DNA of 64,000 nt from Escherichia coli (GTDB taxonomy: Bacteria > Pseudomonadota > Gammaproteobacteria > Enterobacterales > Enterobacteriaceae), in the NCBI RefSeq assembly GCF_048403405.1, contig NZ_CP183129.1; one strand, written 5' to 3'. Each line of letters starts with the position of its first letter. Positions within the stretch are counted from its first letter, which is position 1. Below, one piece after another: positions 3,469 to 24,633 of the stretch. The notes below the pieces were generated by a model. It had not been told where the DNA came from, made no database searches, and was given only the letters and a program-made list of their open reading frames with translations. The position numbers and the translations under genes are program-made.

Positions 3469-5703
<2,235 letters not shown>

Positions 5704-7249: not shown

Positions 7250-8803
7250 TTACTTGATATCTTTCACGCGCATACCGTTGATCTGTTCATCCGTGATGGT
7301 GTTACCCGCTTTGAAGTAATCAACCACGGCGTGATAAACGTAATAACCGCCCGTTGTGTTACGCGCTTTCCCTTCGGTAAAGGCGGTAAAACCATCTCCA
7401 CCATCAGCAAGGAAACTCTGAGTAGCAATGTGGTAAATCGTCGCATCTTCAATGGGTTTGCCATTCAGAGTCAGCGTGATTACCCGCTGACCAACCGGCT
7501 TACTGCTGTCGTACTTCATTTCCAGGCCTTTCGATACCTGTAAAACGCCATTACTTAAACTTGCGCCGTGTTCCATCAAACTGCGTAATTGTTTACCCGT
7601 GAGATCCATCGTCACCAGTTCGTTGGGAAACGGGAAGGTACTGATGACGCCGCCCATCGTAATCGCCCCTGCGGGGATCTCATTGCGAATGCCGCCAGAG
7701 TTGGTTAACGCCAATTGGGTGTTTTTACCCGCCGCTACCAGTAAAGCATCAGCCGCCAGGTTCCCGAGGGAAGCCGATTCACCATAGGCACGTTTTAATT
7801 CAACCGGCGATTTCGCGACCGTTTGTTGCACCACTTCATCAAGCTTTTTATTCCAGCCGTCGATCACCTGTTTTGTTTGCGGATCGGGCTTCCACTCGTC
7901 GGCGTAAATGGTTTTAAGCTCGAAGTTTTTCACCGTAAAATCATGCGGCTTCTCTTTGTAGTCGAGAACCAGTTTGCCCACATCAATCCCGCCGCTGTCA
8001 GTGGAGAGGATGAGCGTATTGCCGACTTTAATCGGTTCCGGCGTACCCACATGCGCATGTCCGGTGATCAAAATATCCAGCCCTTTCACCTGACTTGCCG
8101 TCTGAATATCTTTATCCAGCGCGCGACGCACATCTGTGCCTCCCATACTGGACTGGCGGGCCGGAACACCTTCATGGATCAGGGCGACGGTCAAATCAAC
8201 CTTGCCTTTAAGTTCATCGATATAACGTTGTAGCCATTTAATTTCATCACGCGCTTCAATCCCCACTCGCGTTGCCGCAGATACCGTGTCATTAAAGGCA
8301 AATACACCGTGCAAACCTATAACGCCTATTTTCACGCCGTCTTTTTCGATGATGGTATATGGCTTATCCCAGAATGATTTACTGCTGTTCTGATAAAAAA
8401 CATTGCCCTGCACAATAGGGAATTTTGCCTGACTCAACTGTAATAATGTGTTGTCCCAGCCGTGGTCAAATTCATGGTTGCCTATCGTGACGGCATCAAA
8501 CGGCATAGTATTCATAATATCGATAATAGCCTTACCTTTGGTCAGGCTGCTGATATATGGCCCGGTAAAATAATCACCCGCATCAAAAAACCATGTCGCT
8601 TTATTTTTTGCTTTTTCTTGCTTAACCAGCGTAGTGATATTTGCCCAGCCGCCAATATCCCGTTTACCATCAGCGATCCACGGCACTTTATAAGGCTCGA
8701 CATGCGCATGGAGGTCGTTGGTATAAATGATGGTGACATCTTTGGCGCAAGCCCAAAACGGCAGTGTTAATGCGATACCCGCAGCAAGTATTTTAATTTT
8801 CAT
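7250..8803 (-). CDS. periplasmic bifunctional metallophosphatase/5'-nucleotidase (UshA/YfkN family)
   Basis: 517 aa; signal peptide [20 protein letters not shown]; calcineurin-like motifs NDLHAH, GDYFTG, GNHEFD, GHAH; C-terminal 5'-nucleotidase-like region; RBS aaggga. Confidence 0.8.
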
Positions 8804-8935
8804 AAACAGTCCCTTTCAGTGAGATAAAGGATTGCTACATTACGTTCTGAAAGAGTTATTTATGTGAGAGTAATCACATCCACAGGGGAGCGTTGCCGGA
8901 CAAAATCAACGACCATGTGAAATCGTTGGTGATAT

Positions 8936-10066
8936 ATGTCGACTCTGTTTACGATTAATGCCTGCAAGTCGTTTGGTTGCCGTAATTTAGGGCAGCCAAC
9001 ATCTAAAGATTATAGCTGGCCCGACTATCGGCTGGGTTATCCGGCATTGCACTGTCGGGCATGTGGCAGTTACCCGCCGTTGTTTGACGAGCAACAATTT
9101 CGTGACTGGTTGTCAGTTCACTTATCTACTTTTGCAACAGAGAAAGGCCATTTTTGCCCGGTATGTTATGGCACAAAGACGATTTGTTATGGCCACAATC
9201 CACAGGGGTCGCAACGCATTCAATGTCGTAACTGCAAAAAAGTCTGGACACCTAAACAATATCAGAAAGAAATAACGCCTCCTGAAATAATCGAAACGGT
9301 TGCTCTTCTGGTGCCATTTCAGGGAGCCAGCAATGGGCAGAAACTGTATGTTTTAATCAGTTTTGATGCTCTTCGCGGTAATATTCTTCATCTTTCTACT
9401 AATTACACGCAGCATCAGGCTGGAGAAAGTCTGCATTATCGATACAGAGGGAATGCAGAACCAGAGTTACACGAGAGTAATATTGTACAACGCGTTGATA
9501 TGCGCGAAGCACAATTTCTACGCCGCAGTCAGTTTGATGAAATTCAGTATGGCAGCGCAGCGCTCAAACGCAATGCTAAAGGTGTTATTCTGCGTCCGGT
9601 TATCACTGCACACGGGCATTTCAGAGTACTGAATATTTTATTCCCTACAGTAAAAACACATGTAATTTCACACGAGTGTTTTTTAAGAGGTGCGATTATT
9701 ACGGCCTGGGCAGAACTGTTTCGCCAACAGCAAGGTGAGATTTGGTTTATTGAAGAGGAAATAGCTGACTATACCGATAATACGCCCTGGCGTTTTCAGG
9801 GAAAAACTTATCACGGCTGGTGGAAAAATCAGTGGCAACTCTGGGTTCAGGGCAAAAATCGTAAAATGGTATGTGCATTAACGGGCGGAAATATCAGCAA
9901 AGCTGAAATGCTCTCTTTAGCAACCAGCAGACATTTTATCGACTGGCTACATAAACAAGCAGTATTTACTCACAGCGCCCCGCTTTCCGCAGGGCGCGTT
10001 ACGCAAATACTGCTTTCTCTGGCTCAGGATTACAACAACTGCGCCAGGCGGTTAATATCCGACTGA
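8936..10066 (+). CDS. hypothetical Cys-rich protein with N-terminal zinc-ribbon motifs (CxxC...CxxC), function unknown
   Basis: 376 aa ORF; CRACGS, CPVCYG-x19-CRNCKK reminiscent of IS1/IS1595 transposase zinc ribbons; 3' end overlaps the metL 3' end convergently. Confidence 0.5.
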   Translation: MSTLFTINACKSFGCRNLGQPTSKDYSWPDYRLGYPALHCRACGSYPPLFDEQQFRDWLSVHLSTFATEKGHFCPVCYGTKTICYGHNPQGSQRIQCRNCKKVWTPKQYQKEITPPEIIETVALLVPFQGASNGQKLYVLISFDALRGNILHLSTNYTQHQAGESLHYRYRGNAEPELHESNIVQRVDMREAQFLRRSQFDEIQYGSAALKRNAKGVILRPVITAHGHFRVLNILFPTVKTHVISHECFLRGAIITAWAELFRQQQGEIWFIEEEIADYTDNTPWRFQGKTYHGWWKNQWQLWVQGKNRKMVCALTGGNISKAEMLSLATSRHFIDWLHKQAVFTHSAPLSAGRVTQILLSLAQDYNNCARRLISD

Positions 10067-15031: not shown

Positions 15032-15304
15032 ATGGTCACAGTTAACCTTCATTGTCCCCGTTGCCAGTCCGTTCAGGTTTACCGTCACGGGCAGAACCCC
15101 AAAAGACATGATCGATTCCGCGGCCGTGACTGTCACCGGGTATTTCAACTCAGTTACTGTTACGAGCCCCGTAAACCGGGAGTTAAAGACCAAATCGCTG
15201 AAATGGCTTTCAACGGTGCCGGGGTTCGCTATACTGCCCGTACGCTGAAAATCGGCATTAATACAGTCATCCGAACTTTAAAAAACTCTCGCCACGAAGA
15301 ATAA
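15032..15304 (+). CDS. insA: IS1 InsA (zinc-finger / HTH transposition inhibitor)
   Basis: 90 aa MVTVNLHCPRCQSVQVYRHGQ... aligns with IS1 InsA by eye. Confidence 0.8.
   Translation: MVTVNLHCPRCQSVQVYRHGQNPKRHDRFRGRDCHRVFQLSYCYEPRKPGVKDQIAEMAFNGAGVRYTARTLKIGINTVIRTLKNSRHEE
15280..15286 (+). promoter_or_regulatory. A6C programmed -1 ribosomal frameshift motif of IS1 (aaaaaac)
   Basis: Motif at the insA 3' end, as in canonical IS1. Confidence 0.6.
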
Positions 15305-15322
15305 CGTCATCCCCGGTCGCTC

Positions 15323-15738
15323 ATGCTGATGTGGCACTCATCTGCGAACGTAGTCAGCAATGGAGCTTTGTCGGCAGTAAAGCGCGACAGCACTGGCTCT
15401 GGTACGTGTACAACACGAAAACTGGTGGTGTTCTGGCCTACACTTTTGGCCCCCGGACTGATGAAACCTGTCGTGAACTGCTGGCGCTGCTTACCCTTTT
15501 ACCATCGGCATGTTGACCACTGACGAATGGGGTAGTTACGCTAGAGAGTTACCAAAGGAGAAGCATCTGACTGGTAAGATTTTTACTCAGCACATTGAGC
15601 GTAACAATCTGACCCTGAGAACCCGAATCAAACGTCTGGCCCGCAGAACCATCTGTTTCTCGCGTTCTGTAGAACTTCATGAAAAAGTCATCGGTGCTTT
15701 TATCGAAAATATATGTTCTACTAATTGGAGTCATCACC
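15323..15738 (+). pseudogene. insB: IS1 insB, interrupted by an additional frameshift near 15480-15510; reading frame also runs past the right IR
   Basis: InsB-like sequence split between two frames (…AYTFGPRTDETCRELLALLTLLPSAC* / …PFTIGMLTTDEWGSYARELPKEKHLTGKIFTQHIERNNLTLR…). Confidence 0.6.
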
Positions 15739-15793: not shown

Positions 15794-16117
15794 TTACCTC
15801 ATTCTGCTCTTTTTTCTCAAATGACATATATTATATTTTACATCATATTCATAGGTATATGACATTCCCCCGCCCCCCATTATGTCATTGTGGGTTGATG
15901 TTGGGCTTTCATAAAAAAATACATCTTTTTTTGAACTAGCATTAATTATATTTACTTTATATATTAAAATATTTTCTCCATCTGGAAATATTTTAGCCAC
16001 ACAATATAAAGCAGCTAAATCCGAATTACTTAAAAATATATTGTCATCACTCATAACTCCAGCCATTAAATGACTGGAGACTAAAGCAAGGAAATAACAA
16101 CATTGTATTGCCTTCAT
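15794..16117 (-). CDS. putative immunity protein for the orphan Rhs C-terminal toxin
   Basis: 107 aa from ATG 16117 (MKAIQCCYFLALVSSHLMAG...), GGGAG RBS, start 1 nt after the orphan rhs-CT stop; N-terminal hydrophobic segment; AT-rich. Confidence 0.55.
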   Translation of the reverse strand: MKAIQCCYFLALVSSHLMAGVMSDDNIFLSNSDLAALYCVAKIFPDGENILIYKVNIINASSKKDVFFYESPTSTHNDIMGGGGMSYTYEYDVKYNICHLRKKSRMR

Positions 16118-16118
16118 T

Positions 16119-17654
16119 TTAATTACTCCCTTGCCTGATAATTGCAACTCCATTCCCTTTAGCTTTGGGATTATATTTTAGATAGGTGTTATTTGGTGTT
16201 CCCAAGTAACTACTGTATTCTTTTTTTCCCATTCCATTCATATAAGAATTCGTTAAATCTTTGCTTGAAAAATTTAGACTATCATAAACATCATTTTCTT
16301 TTGTTACTTTATTTCCTTTATCGTCAGAGTAAAAACCGTGAGTGTGATAATCACCTACTCTCTCTGAACCTTCAGGGCATTTTATATTTCGCAAGTCTAC
16401 ACTATCATTATCATTTGAACTTATCGGATTCATAGGGAAATATTCACCTTGCTTCTTACATATTAGTCCACCATATTCTTTATTCTTGTTAATTGATTCT
16501 CCATTACACATTGCCAATGCAAATATTCCAATATCATCTATATTTTTTGATTTAAATTCATATAATCCTAATGGATCCATGCCATTCACCGGGCTCAGCG
16601 GATATGTATACAGGTTCCATCCCCCCTTCAGCCCAATCGGATCCTGAGTGATATACCGCCCCTGCAGCGGGTCATAATAGCGGTGGCGGTTGTAATACAG
16701 GCCGGACTCCTCATCATACTGCTGACCCGGCAGGCGGATGAGCTGCTGCAGCTGATGCGGGTTCTCTTCATTCAGCTGGTTACCCCATTCATCGTATTCT
16801 GCGCACCATTCTGTTGCCCCTTCCGTGCTGACAAGCGCCAGCGGCAGGCCGCGATGGTCGCAGTGGTACAGGTGGATTTTTCGCGCCGGCGTGTACACCG
16901 GGTCCATCTGGTTTTGTATCTGCTCCACCGTCAGGCCGCACGATGCCAGCCAGCGGCGGCTTTCCTCGCTCACCCGGTCAGCCAGGATTTCACTTTCCAG
17001 CCGGTCGAGCATCTGCACCAGCACCGGCGGGAACACCACACTGCCACCGTCTTCACCGCCGGACTGCTGAAGCGCATCCGCCAGGCTGCGGCGCTGCGTT
17101 TTCGCCAGCTCACCGGTGGCAGTTTCAACTCTGATGAGTGGCGTGAAGCTCCCCGGCTGATAAACCGTCTGGATGCGGGTTCTGTCGTTCTGTATTGTGG
17201 TCAGCCGGTCGCCGTCCCAGCCGTACCAGGTCACTTCCGGTTTCCATGACAGCGACATCCAGCCCGTCAGGTCCCGTTCACGCCGCCATACCCGTTTTGC
17301 CACCCTGCGGCCCAGCAGGTCGTAAAGATAGCGACTTTCGACCAGCGGCTCTGCATATTGTGTCCGCGTGTAGTGCACCAGCCGGTGCCGGCTGTCGTAA
17401 TGGTACCGGTGAGTCCGCTCATCATCCGTGCGGATAACCCCTTCCGGGATGAGGTCGGTTTTCTCCGTCAGCCTGCCGTGACGGTCATACCGGTAAAGAT
17501 AGTGCGCGTCACGGGCGATACGGTTATCCGGCCATGCGCTGAGGGGGCTGTCCGGGTGCAGCTCCGGGTCGGGCAGGCGGTTGCCTGCCGGGTCCGTGGC
17601 ATACGGGATATCAATGCCCAGGTTACATATAATAATAAGAGCAATTAACTTAAT
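16119..17654 (-). CDS. orphan Rhs C-terminal module: 5'-truncated rhs core ending in the DPLGL motif plus a distinct ~150 aa toxin tip; no start codon of its own
   Basis: Frame is open from 17654 but first ATG/GTG/TTG is at 17378; residues ...[22 protein letters not shown]...[39 protein letters not shown] are near-identical to the main rhs; tip contains YHTHG. Confidence 0.7.
16606..17608 (-). repeat. ~1.0 kb direct repeat (orphan copy) of the rhs core 3' region
   Basis: Near-identical to 20946..21938 (only scattered mismatches on visual alignment). Confidence 0.8.
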
Positions 17655-17981
17655 TTATTTGTTTATAATGCGCTTACTTAATACAAACCATTGAATATAC
17701 CCTCCTGACAGAAAATAAAGCCATATTATTATCGCCATAATATACTTACTATCAATCCTTACGCCAATAATGTCTGAAACAGTCCCTATAAATATTAGAG
17801 CAATAAAGAATACTATGCCTGTTGGAAAACAGATTACCATCATTCCATAAGACATGAGACTAATTAACTCGCTCACATCACGAGTGGAGTCTAATAGTGA
17901 AAGTCTATGCATGGAAAAGAATAGTATTAAAAGCGATAAAGCCAGCCATATAGCTCTGAATAAAAAAATAATATATTTCAT
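17655..17981 (-). CDS. small polytopic membrane protein (108 aa), candidate stranded immunity protein
   Basis: MKYIIFLFRAIWLALSLLILFF...; about three hydrophobic helices; AT-rich; stop codon directly abuts the orphan rhs frame. Confidence 0.4.
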   Translation of the reverse strand: MKYIIFLFRAIWLALSLLILFFSMHRLSLLDSTRDVSELISLMSYGMMVICFPTGIVFFIALIFIGTVSDIIGVRIDSKYIMAIIIWLYFLSGGYIQWFVLSKRIINK

Positions 17982-18059
17982 TACATCACTCCGGTGAATA
18001 CAAATCTAATAAAGCGTCCAATGTTATTTCCGGAGCACTTCATCTTACATGTTTCTAAA

Positions 18060-19260
18060 GAATCATTAGACCAGTCAGGGCAAGATTACGAAAGCCCGCT
18101 CCCCGCAAGGACTGACGCGAGATAGTTTCTGTCCATGGCTGCTTTTCGCATCTTACGTCTTAACCCTGCCTTGAATACCTTATCATTCGTCAAAATATTA
18201 ATAGCAATGTGCCGTATCCCTGAAAATAATTCTGCTGCGTTTCCTCTTCTTATTTTGCAGTCGTCTTCATTCATTACCACGTCCAGACGCCAGTGCAGCT
18301 TATTCTCCACGTGCCAGTGGTTTCGGATTGCTGTGGCGAACTTCTCAGCGGTTAAATCAGCAGAGCTGATATAATATCTGACCGTCATTTCTGGCTCTTT
18401 CTTTTGTTCTGCTATTATTGACCGAAAGGAGACTGCCACGTATAATTTTTCAGTCCTTTCCATTCAAATGTAAAATCAATAAGTTCATCAGGGACATCGC
18501 AAACAATATGAAGACGGATTTCTTCTCTGCCGTGACTCTTTTCACTAATTGCGTAACTGTCATGCTCTGGATTAATTAATTCTTTCAGCGGAAATGTTTC
18601 CTCAAAGGCTTTATTCAGCCGCCCCTGGTTTCCTTTTACAGCGAATAAGTAATCACCACCCTGTTTTTGTATCTTCTCTGCAATATCTTTCTGGCAACCC
18701 ATCGCATCAGTTGTGATGATTTTCTCTTTAATATACAAAATGTTAAGAAGTTCAGGGATAGCTGTGATCTCATTAGATTTCTCATCCGTCCTGATCTGCC
18801 CCAGGACCAGAATGTGCATTGTTGAGAACGCACTAATGACATGAATCGCTCCCCTGCGGCGACTCTTGTCATAAGAATGCCGGAGTGTTTTTCCATCAAT
18901 TGCGATGACGTCTTTATCATCTGAAGTATGGCAATCTCGCATCCAGTTAATAAAGCACTCGTGAAATTTTGCAGGACTGATACAGGATACAACTCTGGCG
19001 ATGGTATCGTGAACAGGAATACCATTTTCAAAATCACCGTATTGTTTTAAAAAATCGAGATGTGTTTCCCCAAAATCCTCTATATCTTCCCAACCTTCTG
19101 CACCCGAAATAACGGCACAAATAGTCAACAGTAGAATATCCGATAATTTATGTTCCACTTTCCAGGCTTGTCTGTAATCGGGGATAATAGAAATATGCTC
19201 CATCAATTTTTTAAGTTCCATTTTGTTCTCCTTAATTATGTAAGGAGTATTTGATCATGT
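18060..19260 (-). mobile_element. H-repeat / ISAs1-family element (approximate boundaries)
   Basis: Contains the H-rpt transposase; termini not defined by eye. Confidence 0.5.
18086..19221 (-). pseudogene. H-repeat-associated (ISAs1-family) transposase, split by a frameshift near 18415-18463
   Basis: 268 aa N-terminal piece ([28 protein letters not shown]...) and 125 aa C-terminal piece (…[21 protein letters not shown]…) in different frames. Confidence 0.75.
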
Positions 19261-19324
19261 ATAAGCAATAAAAAACAGCTTTAGGTAATGAGGAATATCT
19301 CAATTTTCAAACATAAAATGCGAA

Positions 19325-19920
19325 TTATTTAGTACAAAAAAGCAGCGTTACGTGATCTTTCCCTGGCATGTCATTAGATGAACCAGTTATACAACCCTCG
19401 GAACAGAATCGAGGTCCTAAAGACGGACCAAAAGCGTTTAAACAACTATGTATTGAAAATCCATTACGATTATAAGTTCCTGTATTAACTGACGGTACTA
19501 ATCGTATGCCGTCAGGTTTTCTATTGCTTGCTCCCGGGTCATTAACATTCCAACTCCATAGGCCTTGAGGTATTGGCCCTCTATTTATAAATGTGTACAA
19601 CGGGGATTATTTTTACATTGCATATTATTACCAGAAGCGACTGGAATACTAAGCACATCATAAAAATTATCATCACCTGGTATATCTGAAACACACGAAA
19701 GCATACCTAAAGTTATGCTGTATAAACAGGTGGCTAATCCCAAGGGGATCGATTCCAGAAATCGGGTTCAACGGATACTGATAAAAATTCCACCTACCTT
19801 CCAGCCCAATCGGAGCCTGAGTGTTATACCGCCCCTGCTGCGGTTAATGTTACCGATAATAGTTATAGTACAGCCCTGATTCATCATCATACTACTGCTG
19901 CGGCAGTCTGATGAATTATT
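19325..19920 (-). pseudogene. degenerate orphan rhs-CT remnant (rhs core 3'-end fragment with stops and intact DPLG codons, then a decayed tip)
   Basis: 19770..19920 is roughly 75% identical to the rhs core end by eye; translation gives [51 protein letters not shown] then a stop; 91-aa ORF 19325..19600 follows. Confidence 0.55.
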
Positions 19921-19924
19921 GCTT

Positions 19925-20392
19925 TTACGGATTCTCCTTATTCTTCCTTCTATCCATTCGCTTTAGCTTTAGCTTTTTGAGATCTTGAAGTTTGCTCTTT
20001 GCATCAATATTACCGTTATTTACAGCGAATTCCATCCAATAAATAGCTTTATTCAAATTATAATGTTCTGATAATATTGGATTTGTATCCGATAAAAAAA
20101 ACCCATAATTAAACTGCGCTGTAACACTCCCCTGAGATGCTGATCTTTCTAAGTATCGCAATTGTTTGTAAATGTTATTTTTAGTAAAGCAGTAATATTG
20201 ATATAGTCGAAATGATGCCTCTGAATCACCATGTTGTGATTTATACTTCAGTTTCATCAACTTTTCTTCACTTAAATCATAGGTCATTGCTGTAGACCCC
20301 ATCATACTTTCGTTTTGTTTTATTTTCACATCAGCACCATGCAATTGAAAAATAAAAGAGAAATAAAAAAATAGTAACAAGCATGCTTTCAT
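19925..20392 (-). CDS. putative Rhs immunity protein, secreted, Sel1-like repeat
   Basis: 155 aa; signal peptide MKACLLLFFYFSFIFQLHGA; Sel1/TPR-like segments (…ASQGSVTAQFNYGFFL…, …AIYWMEFAVNNGNIDA…); starts 12 bp after rhs stop; AT-rich. Confidence 0.6.
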   Translation of the reverse strand: MKACLLLFFYFSFIFQLHGADVKIKQNESMMGSTAMTYDLSEEKLMKLKYKSQHGDSEASFRLYQYYCFTKNNIYKQLRYLERSASQGSVTAQFNYGFFLSDTNPILSEHYNLNKAIYWMEFAVNNGNIDAKSKLQDLKKLKLKRMDRRKNKENP

Positions 20393-20403
20393 ACATCTAC
20401 AAC

Positions 20404-23400
20404 CTATCTTATATCACTGGGTTTTTCTGGCGTACCTTGCATATTAGAAATGGGGTGCCCAGATGGCCCATATGTTATCCAATTACCAAGGTCTTTTGTT
20501 GTTATAGCCATTAGATCCTTATTTGAATTAAGGTTCGTTGGTGCTGTTAGCACTGTATCCATTTTTAACTTACCATTAGTTCCTCGCCCCCACCACGTCC
20601 ATAGCGTGTCAGGTCCTATTACATTTGTATGTAACTCTTTAGCTAATTGGCTAGCAAATGAATTTTGTCCTTTACCTGTATTACAAGAAAATAACCAAAC
20701 TGTCATCCCATCTTTATAATTCCCATCAAATTTAATTAGATATGCTAGATCTTTAGCTGTCATGATACTGCGCGTTGCGGATTCAATAGATGTGGGGGTA
20801 CCATGCCCCCCGATTGTGAAAACGCCTGGGATATTAATCTCATCAGCTACAGAATGGATAAGATCACTTTCGGGGTATAAATTTATATCAACCAAACCTT
20901 GCGGATCTACATTTATGACCGGATCCAACGGATACTGATAAAAATTCCATCCCCCCTTAAGCCCAATCGGATCCTGAGTGATATACCGCCCCTGCAGCGG
21001 GTCATAATAGCGGTGGCGGTTGTAATAGAGGCCGGACTCCTCATCATACTGCTGACCCGGCAGGCGGATGAGCTGCTGCAGCTGGTGCGGGTTCTCTTCA
21101 TTCAGCAGGTTGCCCCATTCATCGTATTCTGCGCACCATTCTGTTGCCCCTTCCGTGCTGACAAGCGCCAGCGGCAGGCCGCGATGGTCGCAGTGGTACA
21201 GGTGGATTTTTCGCGCCGGCGTGTACACCGGGTCCATCTGGTTTTGTATCTGCTCCACCGTCAGGCCGCACGATGCCAGCCAGCGGCGGCTTTCCTCGCT
21301 CACCCGGTCAGTAAGGATTTCACTTTCCAGCCGGTCGAGCATCTGCACCAGCACCGGCGGGAACACCACACTGCCACCGTCTTCGCCGCCGGACTGCTGA
21401 AGGGCATCCGCCAGGCTGCGGCGCTGCGTTTTCGCCAGCTCACCGGTGGCGGTTTCAACTCTGATGAGTGGCGTGAAGCTCCCCGGCTGATAAACCGTCT
21501 GGATGCGGGTTCTGTCGTTCTGTATTGTGGTCAGCCGGTCGCCGTCCCAGCCGTACCAGGTCACTTCCGGTTTCCGTGACAGCGACATCCAGCCCGTCAG
21601 GTCCCGTTCACGCCGCCATACCCGTTTTGCCACCCTGCGGCCCAGCGGGTCGTAAAGATAGCGACTTTCGACCAGCGGCTCTGCATATTGTGTCCGCGTG
21701 TAGTGCACCAGCCGGTGCCGGCTGTCGTAATGATACCGGTGAGTCCGCTCATCATCCGTGCGGATAACCCCTTCCGGGATGAGGTCGGTTTTCTCTGTCA
21801 GCCTGCCGTGACGGTCATACCGGTAAAGATAGTGCGCGTCACGGGCGATACGGTTATCCGGCCACATGCTGAGGGTGCTGTCCGGGTGCAGCTCCGGGTC
21901 GGGCAGGCGGTTACCTGCCGGGTCCGTGGCATACGGGATGCGGATATCCAGATTCGCTGCGGTGGTGTGGACGCCGGTCAGCCTGCCGGTGTCGCTGTAG
22001 CTGTAACTCCGGGTCTGGCGCGGGCTGCTGATGCGGATGAGTTCGCCGTTGTCGTTCCAGGTGTAATCGCGGTCATACTGCAGGCTGTTCAGGTGCTGGC
22101 TCTGTAACTGCCCGGCAGAGGTGTAAGCGGTGGTGAGTTCATAACGGCCGAAGCTGCGCAGCGTTTCCCGGTGCAGGCGGTCGCGGGTGAAATCCACCAG
22201 CGGTGTGTCGCCGAGTTTCATGCCTGACAGCCAGCCGCTGCCGTAGGTCAGCCATTCCACGGCGGGCAGGCTGTCCGGTATACAGCGGTTCGCCAGTCCC
22301 TGCGCGTTGTACGCATGTCTGGTTTCATGCTGCCAGAGCAGTGCTTCCGTCTGCGGGTGATGCACCGTCTGGCGCTCACCGGTCAGGCGGCCTTTCTCAT
22401 CATACCCGTAATGCACCGTCACCCGGTGGCCTTCGCTGAGATGGCTGATGCCTGTCAGCCAGCCGCGTTCGTCGTACCGCCACTGTTCTGCGGTTTCACC
22501 ATTCACCGTTCGCTGTGTGATGCGGTCTGCTTCGTCATAGTGCCAGTGGGTGACCAGCCCCTCATCCTCGCTGCGGATAAGTTTGCCGGTCAGGTCGTGG
22601 TGATAACGCTGTGTGCGGCCGTCAAAGCCGGTTTCCTGTATCAGCCGGTCAAGTACATCGTAACGGAAGGTGGTGTGGCTGCCGTTTTCACTGGTCAGGC
22701 GGATGACCCGCCCGGCAGCATCGTATTCCATACTGCGCGTCAGACCGCCCTGCGTGGTACGGATGGCCTTTCCCCACGCATCGTACTGTGTCCCGTTTCT
22801 GCTGTCGTCCGGGGCAATGACGGCGGTCAGGTCACCGGCGGCGTTGTATTCATACCGCGTTTCATGGCCCTGCATGTCTTTCACCGCAATTAACTGTCCA
22901 CGGCTGTCGTATGCGCGGTACTGGCTCAGGCCTTCCTCGCGGTGCACCGTCGTCACCTGACCAAAACGGTCATGGTCATAGCGGGTTACATAACCGGAAC
23001 AGTCGGTAAAGCTCAGCAACTGACCGTAACGGCTCCACGTCATGGTTTTCCGGCTGCCGGTGGCATCTTCCGTTGCGCAGGGGAAGTCACTGTGTGGATT
23101 ATCATAACGGTAGCGGGTGATATCGCCGTCAGGGGCGGTTTCCTGAATCAGACGGCCGGATTCATCATATTTGCGGCGCAACTCCAGCCCGTCAGTCCCG
23201 GTGGCTGACGTTAACTGGTTGTGGTGGTTATAGTAAAATGCCGATGCCCTGCCATCCGGTGTGGTGATGCGCGTGATGAGTCCCGTCACCACATCCGGGC
23301 TGTACTCAGTCGTCCGGCCTGCGGCATCCGTCTGTGCCTTAAGCCTGCCCACCGCATCAAACTGACTCTGCGCGACGCTGCCGTCCGCGTGTTCCTTTTT

Positions 23401-24633
23401 CACCACCCGCTTCAGCCCGCCTTCGCCCTGCGTGTGCAGCACTTCACGGCGGTCCAGACTGTCGGTGATGGTGATGCGGTCTTTCTCATACTGATACGTG
23501 TAGCTTAAGCCTGCCGGGTTTAGCTGCTCTGTCACCCGCCCGTCGCTGTCGTAACGGTAACGGATTTCCGGCCGGCCCGCGCGGCGGTGCGCCACCATCC
23601 GGCCCCGGTATTTATCATCGTAAGTAAAGCTGCGCACCTGTTTGCCACTGCGGTCATACACCGCCGCCAGTTCGCCGCGTGGCGTCCAGCCATAGCGCAC
23701 CAGCGGCGCGGCAGGTAAATTCTCCGGGTATTCAGGGTCGTGTGTCAGCCACACGGCAGACAGACGGATACCGTTGTCCCGGCCATATTCCGTGTAGTCC
23801 GGCAGGGTATCAGGAAAAGCGGACGGTTCCGTCCCGCCGGAAGTGGCCTTCTGCCGGGCCTCTTCTGCCCGCTGCGCCTGCGTGGTCAGTACCAGCCGGA
23901 AGTGACGCCCGGCACCATCCGTCACGCCGGTGATTTCGCCGCTGAATTCACCGCCAGCCTCACGGTGAAACGTCTGTGTGCGCCCGAAGCGGTCCACCAG
24001 CCCGGTCAGTACCCGGTACGGCGGCAGCGGCGCGGGCAGCACCTCATCCGCCTCCGGCACCTGCTCACACCAGCCGAGTACCCACCACGGCCCCTGCGGA
24101 CTGTTTGTCGCCAGATAACGATGCGGACTCAGGCGGAGTTCTTCCGGCAGCGCCTGCCAGAGTGCGGCCAGCCGGTGACCTTCATCCAGTTTCAGGACAC
24201 CGCCACGCACCAGCCAGAGTGATTCGCTGCGGCTGTAACCGTCCTCACCGGGAAACAGGTGCTCAAAATACAGGCTCCTGCCGCCGTTATCACTGAGTAT
24301 CAGTGTGTTATCGCGCAGCTGTAGGCGGATATCCGCAGGCATTTTCCAGCCGGGGCCGAGGCTCCCCACCGGCGCGGGCGTTTTTGTCCGGTAACTGCTG
24401 TAGGTGCGGGAGAGGATGAACGGCAGCGGGCCGGGCAGGGCAAGGTCGGTTTCGCCGGGAAGGACCTTCGCACCGAGCAGCGGATTGACCGGATGGCCGG
24501 ACGTCACCCCGCCGGGGCACACCGAACAGGCCACGCCGGTGGGGGCACCAATACGTACCCCGGCAGAACCCTGAACAATGCTACCGCCATACTGCGTCAT
24601 GTCGCCCTGACGCGCCGCCGGTTTTCCGCTCAT
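20404..24633 (-). CDS. rhs: Rhs-family polymorphic toxin (PAAR-like N-terminus, YD repeats, core ending PxxxxDPxGL, variable C-terminal toxin tip)
   Basis: 1409 aa; N-terminus [31 protein letters not shown]; many YD-type repeats; ...[14 protein letters not shown] followed by a ~162 aa AT-rich tip. Confidence 0.9.
20946..21938 (-). repeat. ~1.0 kb direct repeat (main rhs copy) shared with the orphan rhs-CT
   Basis: Near-identical to 16606..17608. Confidence 0.8.

Follow-up and report, generated by a model that had tools for sequence, protein, structure and literature searches.

The window analysed here is a 64,000-nt stretch of Escherichia coli DNA (contig NZ_CP183129.1, assembly GCF_048403405.1), which is base-for-base collinear with E. 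coli CFSAN061763 (NZ_CP042899), such that a window coordinate equals the record coordinate minus 4,681,676. It contains an rhs element flanked by rpmE/priA and yiiX/metJ, which we assigned to rhsF because the PGAP product name 'RHS element protein dsORF-f3' is present. Along the minus strand, the order is a full-length Rhs gene, a Sel1 gene, a fossil Rhs tip, ISEc1, a 31-codon tip remnant with ybfB, a 501-codon orphan core with its tip and dsORF-f3, and finally IS1H. The individual features are:

20404..24633, minus strand: full-length Rhs toxin gene of the rhsF locus, 1409 aa (ORF list; PGAP 'RHS element core protein')
19925..20392, minus strand: Sel1-repeat gene, 155 aa, with a signal-peptide-like N terminus, homologue of K-12 yibG (PGAP 'SEL1-like repeat protein')
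19739..19918, minus strand: fossil Rhs core tail of about 60 codons ending in DPLG, equivalent to K-12 yibS (b4650) (BLASTN; stops; PGAP pseudogene)
19366..19743, minus strand: fossil Tlde1 / L,D-transpeptidase-like toxin domain, equivalent to K-12 yibW (b4651) (alignment to the intact MS1718 and 19KM1776 alleles; Pfam)
19325..19600, minus strand: 91-aa ORF with a TTG start (ORF list)
18076..19365, minus strand: ISEc1 (ISAs1 family, 'H-repeat'), 1290 bp (PGAP 'ISAs1 family transposase, frameshifted'; end homologies; junction sequences)
17982..18075, minus strand: last 31 codons of an RhsC-type tip, severed by ISEc1 (megablast; translation; PGAP 'hypothetical protein, missing N-terminus')
17655..17981, minus strand: ybfB, intact, presumed RhsC immunity gene (PGAP 'protein YbfB'; K-12 context, where it is the gene after rhsC)
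16119..17624, minus strand: orphan rhs core fragment of 501 codons, lacking its N terminus, with intact DPLGL and its own tip (translation; PGAP pseudogene 'missing N-terminus')
15794..16117, minus strand: dsORF-f3, a small gene after the orphan tip, presumed immunity gene (PGAP 'RHS element protein dsORF-f3')
15032..15724, plus strand: IS1H with a frameshifted transposase, closing the rhs array beside yiiX and metJ (PGAP)

The resident Rhs core ends at DPQGL (aa 1243–1247), beyond which lies the attached toxin tip (about 20895..20404). The Sel1-repeat gene that follows is presumed, from position only, to be the immunity gene of this tip. An NCBIfam scan of six locus proteins (main tip, Sel1, frame-corrected Tlde1 tip, YbfB, orphan tip and dsORF-f3) returned only a sub-threshold MerG match, for Sel1; the tip of the 501-codon orphan core fragment (…HTHGFYSDD…) and dsORF-f3 were assigned no family. 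Elsewhere in the window, 7250..10066 holds, between metF and metL, a gene for a bifunctional metallophosphatase/5'-nucleotidase and one for a 376-aa hypothetical protein; the second overlaps the 3' end of metL by 37 nt on the opposite strand.

The preliminary description placed a degenerate copy of the rhs core end after the main immunity gene, and alignment to the rhs core bears this out. In a BLASTN search with 19960..19300 as query and the resident rhs gene (24633..20404) as subject, window 19914..19763, directly after the Sel1 gene (20392..19925), matched nt 3563–3714 of the resident gene without gaps at 118/152 positions (77.6%, E 4.7e-31). The fossil segment also matched the second core fragment (17624..16119) at 73.9% over 180 nt (E 1e-27). 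Because every further match of 19960..19300 to the rhs cores of the locus had E > 0.03, the core-tail match is far beyond chance. Core homology spans about 19918..19739, slightly displaced from the 19920..19770 first proposed. The peptide strings quoted earlier, the DPLG codons (19750..19739, read as PISGIDPLG) and three in-frame stops (TAG 19894–19892, TAA 19852–19850 and TAA 19846–19844) are all present in the minus-strand frame from 19960, and a fourth stop, TAA 19918–19916, forms the first codon of the core homology. PGAP annotates 19891..19673 as a pseudogene ('RHS repeat-associated core domain-containing protein; internal stop; missing N-terminus'), and a family profile of 30 sequences matched the core tails of solved Rhs structures among PDB sequences (E 1e-13 to 6e-15).

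An intact allele of the tip occurs in MS1718, CFSAN061771 and 19KM1776 (protein clusters P0001 and P0002). There, DPLGL reads straight into a 147-aa domain ending ...STLTVTD, with an 'Imm57 family immunity protein' gene directly after it. Compared with this allele, the fossil carries a +1-nt insertion at about 19748, a 9-nt deletion at 19634/19633 and a 1-nt deletion at 19587/19586. The insertion falls inside the DPLG codons, alters the next Leu and shifts the N-terminal third of the domain into frame +1 (19743..19585, LGLATC...CTHL and a stop); the 9-nt deletion is in-frame, and the 1-nt deletion restores frame 0 from about 19586. The catalytic part is consequently read in frame 0, with its His at 19450–48 and SEGC at 19402–19391, and the last 19 codons of the domain are missing. 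With four stops, two frameshifts and an IS truncation, the fossil fails as a live gene.

The 91-aa ORF described as following the core fragment does exist at 19600..19325, yet it is not separate from the fossil: it consists of the toxin domain and the end of ISEc1. By BLASTP, residues 6–78 are identical to the intact allele at 64/73 positions (88%), and the match ends exactly at ...SSNDM. The ORF is chimeric, in that codons 1–78 are the Tlde1 catalytic part, covering the catalytic C-terminal two-thirds of the fossil toxin domain, and codons 79–91 plus the stop derive from the ISEc1 left end. By its composition, it is not an independent gene but an accident of the IS junction. We also considered whether the ORF is an old immunity gene, which was ruled out by its alignment to the toxin domain and by the absence of Imm57.

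The frame-corrected tip matched the Pfam family Tlde1_dom (PF10908, E 1.6e-6), and YkuD weakly, whereas the 91-aa ORF alone matched Tlde1_dom only at E 0.011. Homologues carry precomputed PF10908, and 'tlde1 domain-containing protein' is the PGAP product name of the intact allele. The intact allele, as opposed to the broken fossil, was modelled with AF2 at pLDDT 88.5 and pTM 0.85 (30-sequence alignment), and the top 19 Foldseek matches of the model in the PDB were all enzymes of the L,D-transpeptidase (YkuD) fold, DpaA, Bd1075, LdtMt2 and Csd6 among them (TM(query) 0.40–0.59). The catalytic motif published for Tlde1a is HXX14-17-(S/T)HGCh (PMC9638812); fossil and intact allele both read H-x15-S-E-G-C-I, which has the His, Ser, Gly, Cys and hydrophobic positions of that motif but, for its second His, a Glu that is nearly invariant in the subfamily. 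A phmmer search of PDB sequences with the single intact tip gave no meaningful match and did not retrieve Tlde1a, and with the 30-sequence profile the matches were confined to Rhs core tails in solved Rhs/Tc structures, Tlde1a again being absent; Pfam and AF2 with Foldseek are thus the basis of the fold assignment.

Relatives in other bacteria, 1378–1616 aa long and with YD repeats, bear the Tlde1 domain directly after DPxGL, which marks it as a genuine Rhs tip. As no full-length E. coli Rhs with a Tlde1 tip attached was found, we infer the former attachment in E. coli from the orphans and from other genera. The intact ancestor would attack peptidoglycan in the target-cell periplasm. The N termini of the Sel1 protein (MKACLLLFFYFSFIFQLHGADV...) and of the product of the Imm57 gene in rhsA copies (L003 7465..7986) are hydrophobic and signal-peptide-like, consistent with periplasm-acting toxins for both tips.

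On its distal side, the fossil ends abruptly. Homology to K-12 and MS1718 stops at window 19366, and the left end of ISEc1 begins at 19365, the element having taken the place of the final 19 toxin codons and of Imm57. With a transposase gene between inverted repeats over about 1.29 kb, ISEc1 is a recognizable ISAs1-family element; its terminal repeats are imperfect (CAGGGAAAGATCACG and CAGGGCAAGATTACG) and its transposase is frameshifted (19221..18415 and 18463..18086). No target-site duplication was found around it, one flank ending ...GACATGC and the other beginning ACTGGTC without repeat. The two flanks belong to different rhs arrays, with the rhsA-type Tlde1 tip on one side and the end of an rhsC-type tip on the other: by megablast, window 18076..17600 is 99% identical to the K-12 rhsC 3' end, ybfB and the next core fragment, which is rhsO-like. 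Because there is no target duplication and the flanks are unrelated, the junction probably arose by recombination between two ISEc1 copies, joining an rhsA-type to an rhsC-type array; no parental junction for this step was recovered.

Two further observations concern the edges of these tips. The immunity-type gene ybfB survives without its toxin, the reverse of the situation at the Tlde1 tip, whose immunity gene is gone. Directly upstream of the intact Tlde1 orphan of MS1718 lies an ISAs1 element, itself intact (L002 5779..7033), that cuts the core tail of the orphan to 36 codons; ISEc1-type elements thus recur at different edges of the same tip across strains.

The divergence of the core tail was then set apart from its decay. 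Against the resident core, the fossil tail has dS 0.93, dN 0.21 and dN/dS 0.22 (53 codons), and E. coli genomes lacking the fossil contain no rhs core at least 90% identical to it. Because of this high dS, the low dN/dS and the lack of a closer living E. coli core, most of the 22% divergence is, on substitution pattern, old and mainly synonymous change accumulated under constraint in another rhs core lineage, not rot. A decayed copy of this locus's own core, the other origin considered for the tail, was ruled out on the same three grounds. The frame-corrected toxin domain, compared with the intact allele, likewise has dN/dS 0.22 (dS 0.32, dN 0.07; 154 codons). The real decay of the fossil is a handful of killing mutations. 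The core lineage of the tail seems to survive in E. coli only as this fossil.

The fossil tip is present in 3632 of the 5426 complete E. coli genomes at about 98.3–100% identity, and the core tail is at least 95% identical in 3482/5426. The decayed allele was found in 3484 genomes (about 64% of complete E. coli) and an intact-like allele (at least 95% identity) in 186. The five copies sampled (the window, K-12, O157:H7, CPww7 and 103605) share every stop and indel, and since the lesions are identical across lineages, inactivation predates both the lineage split and the arrival at rhsF. In the latter four strains, the distal end of rhsA reads yibG, fossil, Imm57 (frameshifted) and yibH; the MG1655 names of the fossil are yibS (b4650) and yibW (b4651), and yibV (b4615, PF15596) is the Imm57 piece. 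The Imm57 gene and the true 3' end of the tip are kept only in rhsA copies. K-12-type copies have extra non-conservative changes (G to W in NRGPIP, and S to L). A literature search for yibS/yibW returned only unrelated acronyms. The feature is one that is already annotated, as a PGAP pseudogene and under the names yibS/yibW in K-12, and it is explained by the C-terminal displacement model.

The K-12 rhsA orphan array yibJ-yibG-yibS-yibW and the window run collinear over a stretch that begins within the core, at about 21366, and extends to 19366. Identity is 95.0% in the core part, 99.8% between the attached tip and that of the K-12 pseudogene yibJ, 97.7% between the Sel1 gene and yibG, 100% in the fossil core tail (over 19914..19751) and 99.0% in the fossil toxin domain. 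The YibJ tip of K-12 is a pseudogene by a CAA to TAA change, whereas the YibJ-type tip is intact and on a full-length Rhs both in the window and at rhsA of O157:H7 strain 2159; the same cassette is thus live or dead depending on strain and locus. The fossil at rhsF with the ISEc1 junction was found in only 167 genomes, and a strain identical to the window across the region carries two fossil copies. At three informative sites that differ from the sampled rhsA copies, the window has the base of the intact allele, so the donor was basal to the sampled rhsA copies. These sequences are explained most parsimoniously if displacement at rhsA gave rise to the fossil and a copy of it reached rhsF later as a passenger, the direction from rhsA to rhsF being the one that parsimony favours.

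Taken together, these results make it very probable that the region is a paralogous copy of K-12 yibS/yibW: an orphan Rhs C-terminal tip, dead today but once a Tlde1-family toxin tip, with the following history. The original gene would have comprised the last 60 or so core codons, the DPLGL self-cleavage motif and a Tlde1-family domain of about 147 aa, followed by an Imm57-family gene. Nonsense mutations in the core tail and the +1, −9 and −1 indels in the toxin domain, which the shared lesions date to before the divergence of the sampled E. coli lineages, silenced it. A newer cassette, the YibJ-type tip with the Sel1 gene yibG, was presumably inserted upstream at distal rhsA by C-terminal displacement. 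The composite of core 3' part, YibJ-type tip, Sel1 gene and dead Tlde1 tip may then have been copied onto a full-length rhs gene at rhsF by homologous recombination in the core. The distal end was cut by ISEc1 with loss of 19 toxin codons and Imm57, as the junction attests, and IS–IS recombination probably joined the rhsA-type array to the rhsC-type array there. The fossil would now be functionless and drifting neutrally.

This history differs from one confined to the locus, in which the tip was displaced here by the current main tip and has been rotting since, so that three toxin generations of this one locus would be recorded in the array and the 91-aa ORF would stand as a gene in its own right, for instance an old immunity gene. 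The stops are real, and the position right after a live toxin/immunity pair is what the displacement model predicts, so the preliminary description of an older displaced tip holds insofar as this is a displaced, non-functional orphan Rhs tip downstream of a live pair. Its decay, on the other hand, was inherited: all lesions are common to rhsA-locus copies in distant lineages, K-12 and O157:H7 included, and most of the divergence is not rot. Fossil, main tip and Sel1 gene form one block, 95–100% identical, that is also in K-12 and O157, and it is the toxin domain, and not Imm57, that the 91-aa ORF matches. The succession of three toxin generations in one locus does not survive the presence of a fourth tip remnant, of RhsC type, and of a chimeric IS junction; the four tips form no single local chronological series, since an ISEc1 without target duplication joins rhsA-type and rhsC-type arrays. 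We regard such purely local decay as improbable.

Even less probable is that a Tlde1-derived mini-enzyme or regulator is expressed on its own from the 91-aa ORF, or from its 97-aa K-12-type version. In favour, the reading frame is open with His...SEGC retained, and the K-12-type ORF is called as a protein in 480 database members (P0022). Against expression, no Shine–Dalgarno sequence precedes the TTG start, and a promoter/terminator scan of 19150..20450 found no promoter-like minus-strand site upstream of the ORF, counts being no higher than in shuffles. Against activity, the ORF lacks the N-terminal third of the domain with its invariant C-K-N-N...C block, its C terminus in the window is IS-derived junk, Pfam recognizes it alone only at E 0.011, and the K-12-type copies carry the two further non-conservative changes noted above. 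From these features we infer that the fossil is unexpressed.

Orphan rhs genes in Salmonella are reportedly re-armed by recombination with full-length rhs, as Koskiniemi et al. are said to have described in 2014, and in favour of a silent cassette of this sort the fossil still has 152–180 nt of core homology with a 24-nt exact run. That homology is, however, 77.6% identical with a single exact stretch of 24 nt, and the product of a crossover would carry, after the core, a domain frameshifted at DPLG and again 160 nt later, and truncated by ISEc1. No immunity gene follows the fossil here: directly 3' of it in the window, ISEc1 stands in place of the cognate gene. We accordingly give the re-armable cassette next to no credence. 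A chance resemblance or low-complexity artefact can be dismissed outright, given E 4.7e-31 against the resident core, the existing PGAP pseudogene and thousands of conserved copies. For the dead passenger tip that we favour, no present function is expected, because promoter and Shine–Dalgarno sequence are lacking, the N-terminal third is missing from the ORF, and recombination would yield only a frameshifted, truncated tip.

Pseudogenes of this sort are well described, and the fossil, already annotated and carried by most E. coli, K-12 among them, is of little consequence by itself. Its use lies in how such regions are read. ORFs beside rhs fossils can be toxin-domain fragments fused to IS ends and not immunity genes, and low identity of an orphan core tail need not signal decay, being here mostly old synonymous divergence. 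Nor is tip order in an rhs array a guide to the history of the locus, since multi-tip blocks move between loci. The intact allele, a predicted toxin made up of a Tlde1-family Rhs tip with Imm57, occurs in a few percent of E. coli.

A broader reading is possible, although we hold it tentatively and would put it somewhat below an even chance. Whole orphan-tip arrays, dead passengers included, may be copied between the rhs loci of one species, here from rhsA to rhsF, by recombination that takes place within the core at one end and between ISEc1/H-repeat copies at the other, in which case rhs arrays would not be local chronological records. The core tail, with dS of about 0.9 to all living E. coli cores and none above 90% identity, might then be the sole surviving E. 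coli trace of an rhs core lineage, otherwise extinct or else foreign, whose cargo was a Tlde1-type cell-wall toxin.

The closest known counterpart is K-12 yibS/yibW with yibV, downstream of rhsA-yibA-yibJ-yibG. The core tail is 100% and the toxin domain 99.0% identical to it, with the same three stops and the same indels, and yibG precedes yibS/yibW with the same 10-nt spacer as in the window. The window copy differs in lying at rhsF (rpmE to yiiX/metJ), in having its upstream YibJ-type tip intact on a full-length Rhs, and in having ISEc1 in place of its 3' end (19 codons and Imm57/yibV).

The intact orphan allele of MS1718, CFSAN061771 and 19KM1776 belongs to the same tip family and lies likewise at the distal rhsA end, next to yibH, with 87% nucleotide identity to the fossil. 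Unlike the fossil, it has an unbroken reading frame across core tail and toxin, with a core tail of the ordinary RhsA/B/C/F type, and in MS1718 it is followed by an intact Imm57 gene.

The C-terminal displacement model has old tips pushed downstream into silent positions, where they accumulate as arrays (Jackson et al. 2009, PMC2935791). That account stresses laterally acquired tips inserted at a locus, whereas the fossil here is a passenger on a multi-tip cassette shared by two rhs loci of one species, with an IS element at the distal junction.

At the level of the toxin, the nearest parallel is Tlde1a of Salmonella Typhimurium, a T6SS effector with L,D-carboxypeptidase and transpeptidase-exchange activity (PMC9638812). 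The fossil family shares with it PF10908, a YkuD-like fold and the block His...Ser-x-Gly-Cys-hydrophobic; a periplasmic target is likewise suggested by the signal-like N termini of the Imm57 partner and the Sel1 neighbour. Sequence similarity between the two is so low that phmmer against the PDB does not detect it. Whereas Tlde1a acts as a stand-alone effector and has SHGC, the fossil family is a C-terminal Rhs tip with SEGC, a motif kept in the intact allele and in nearly all relatives.
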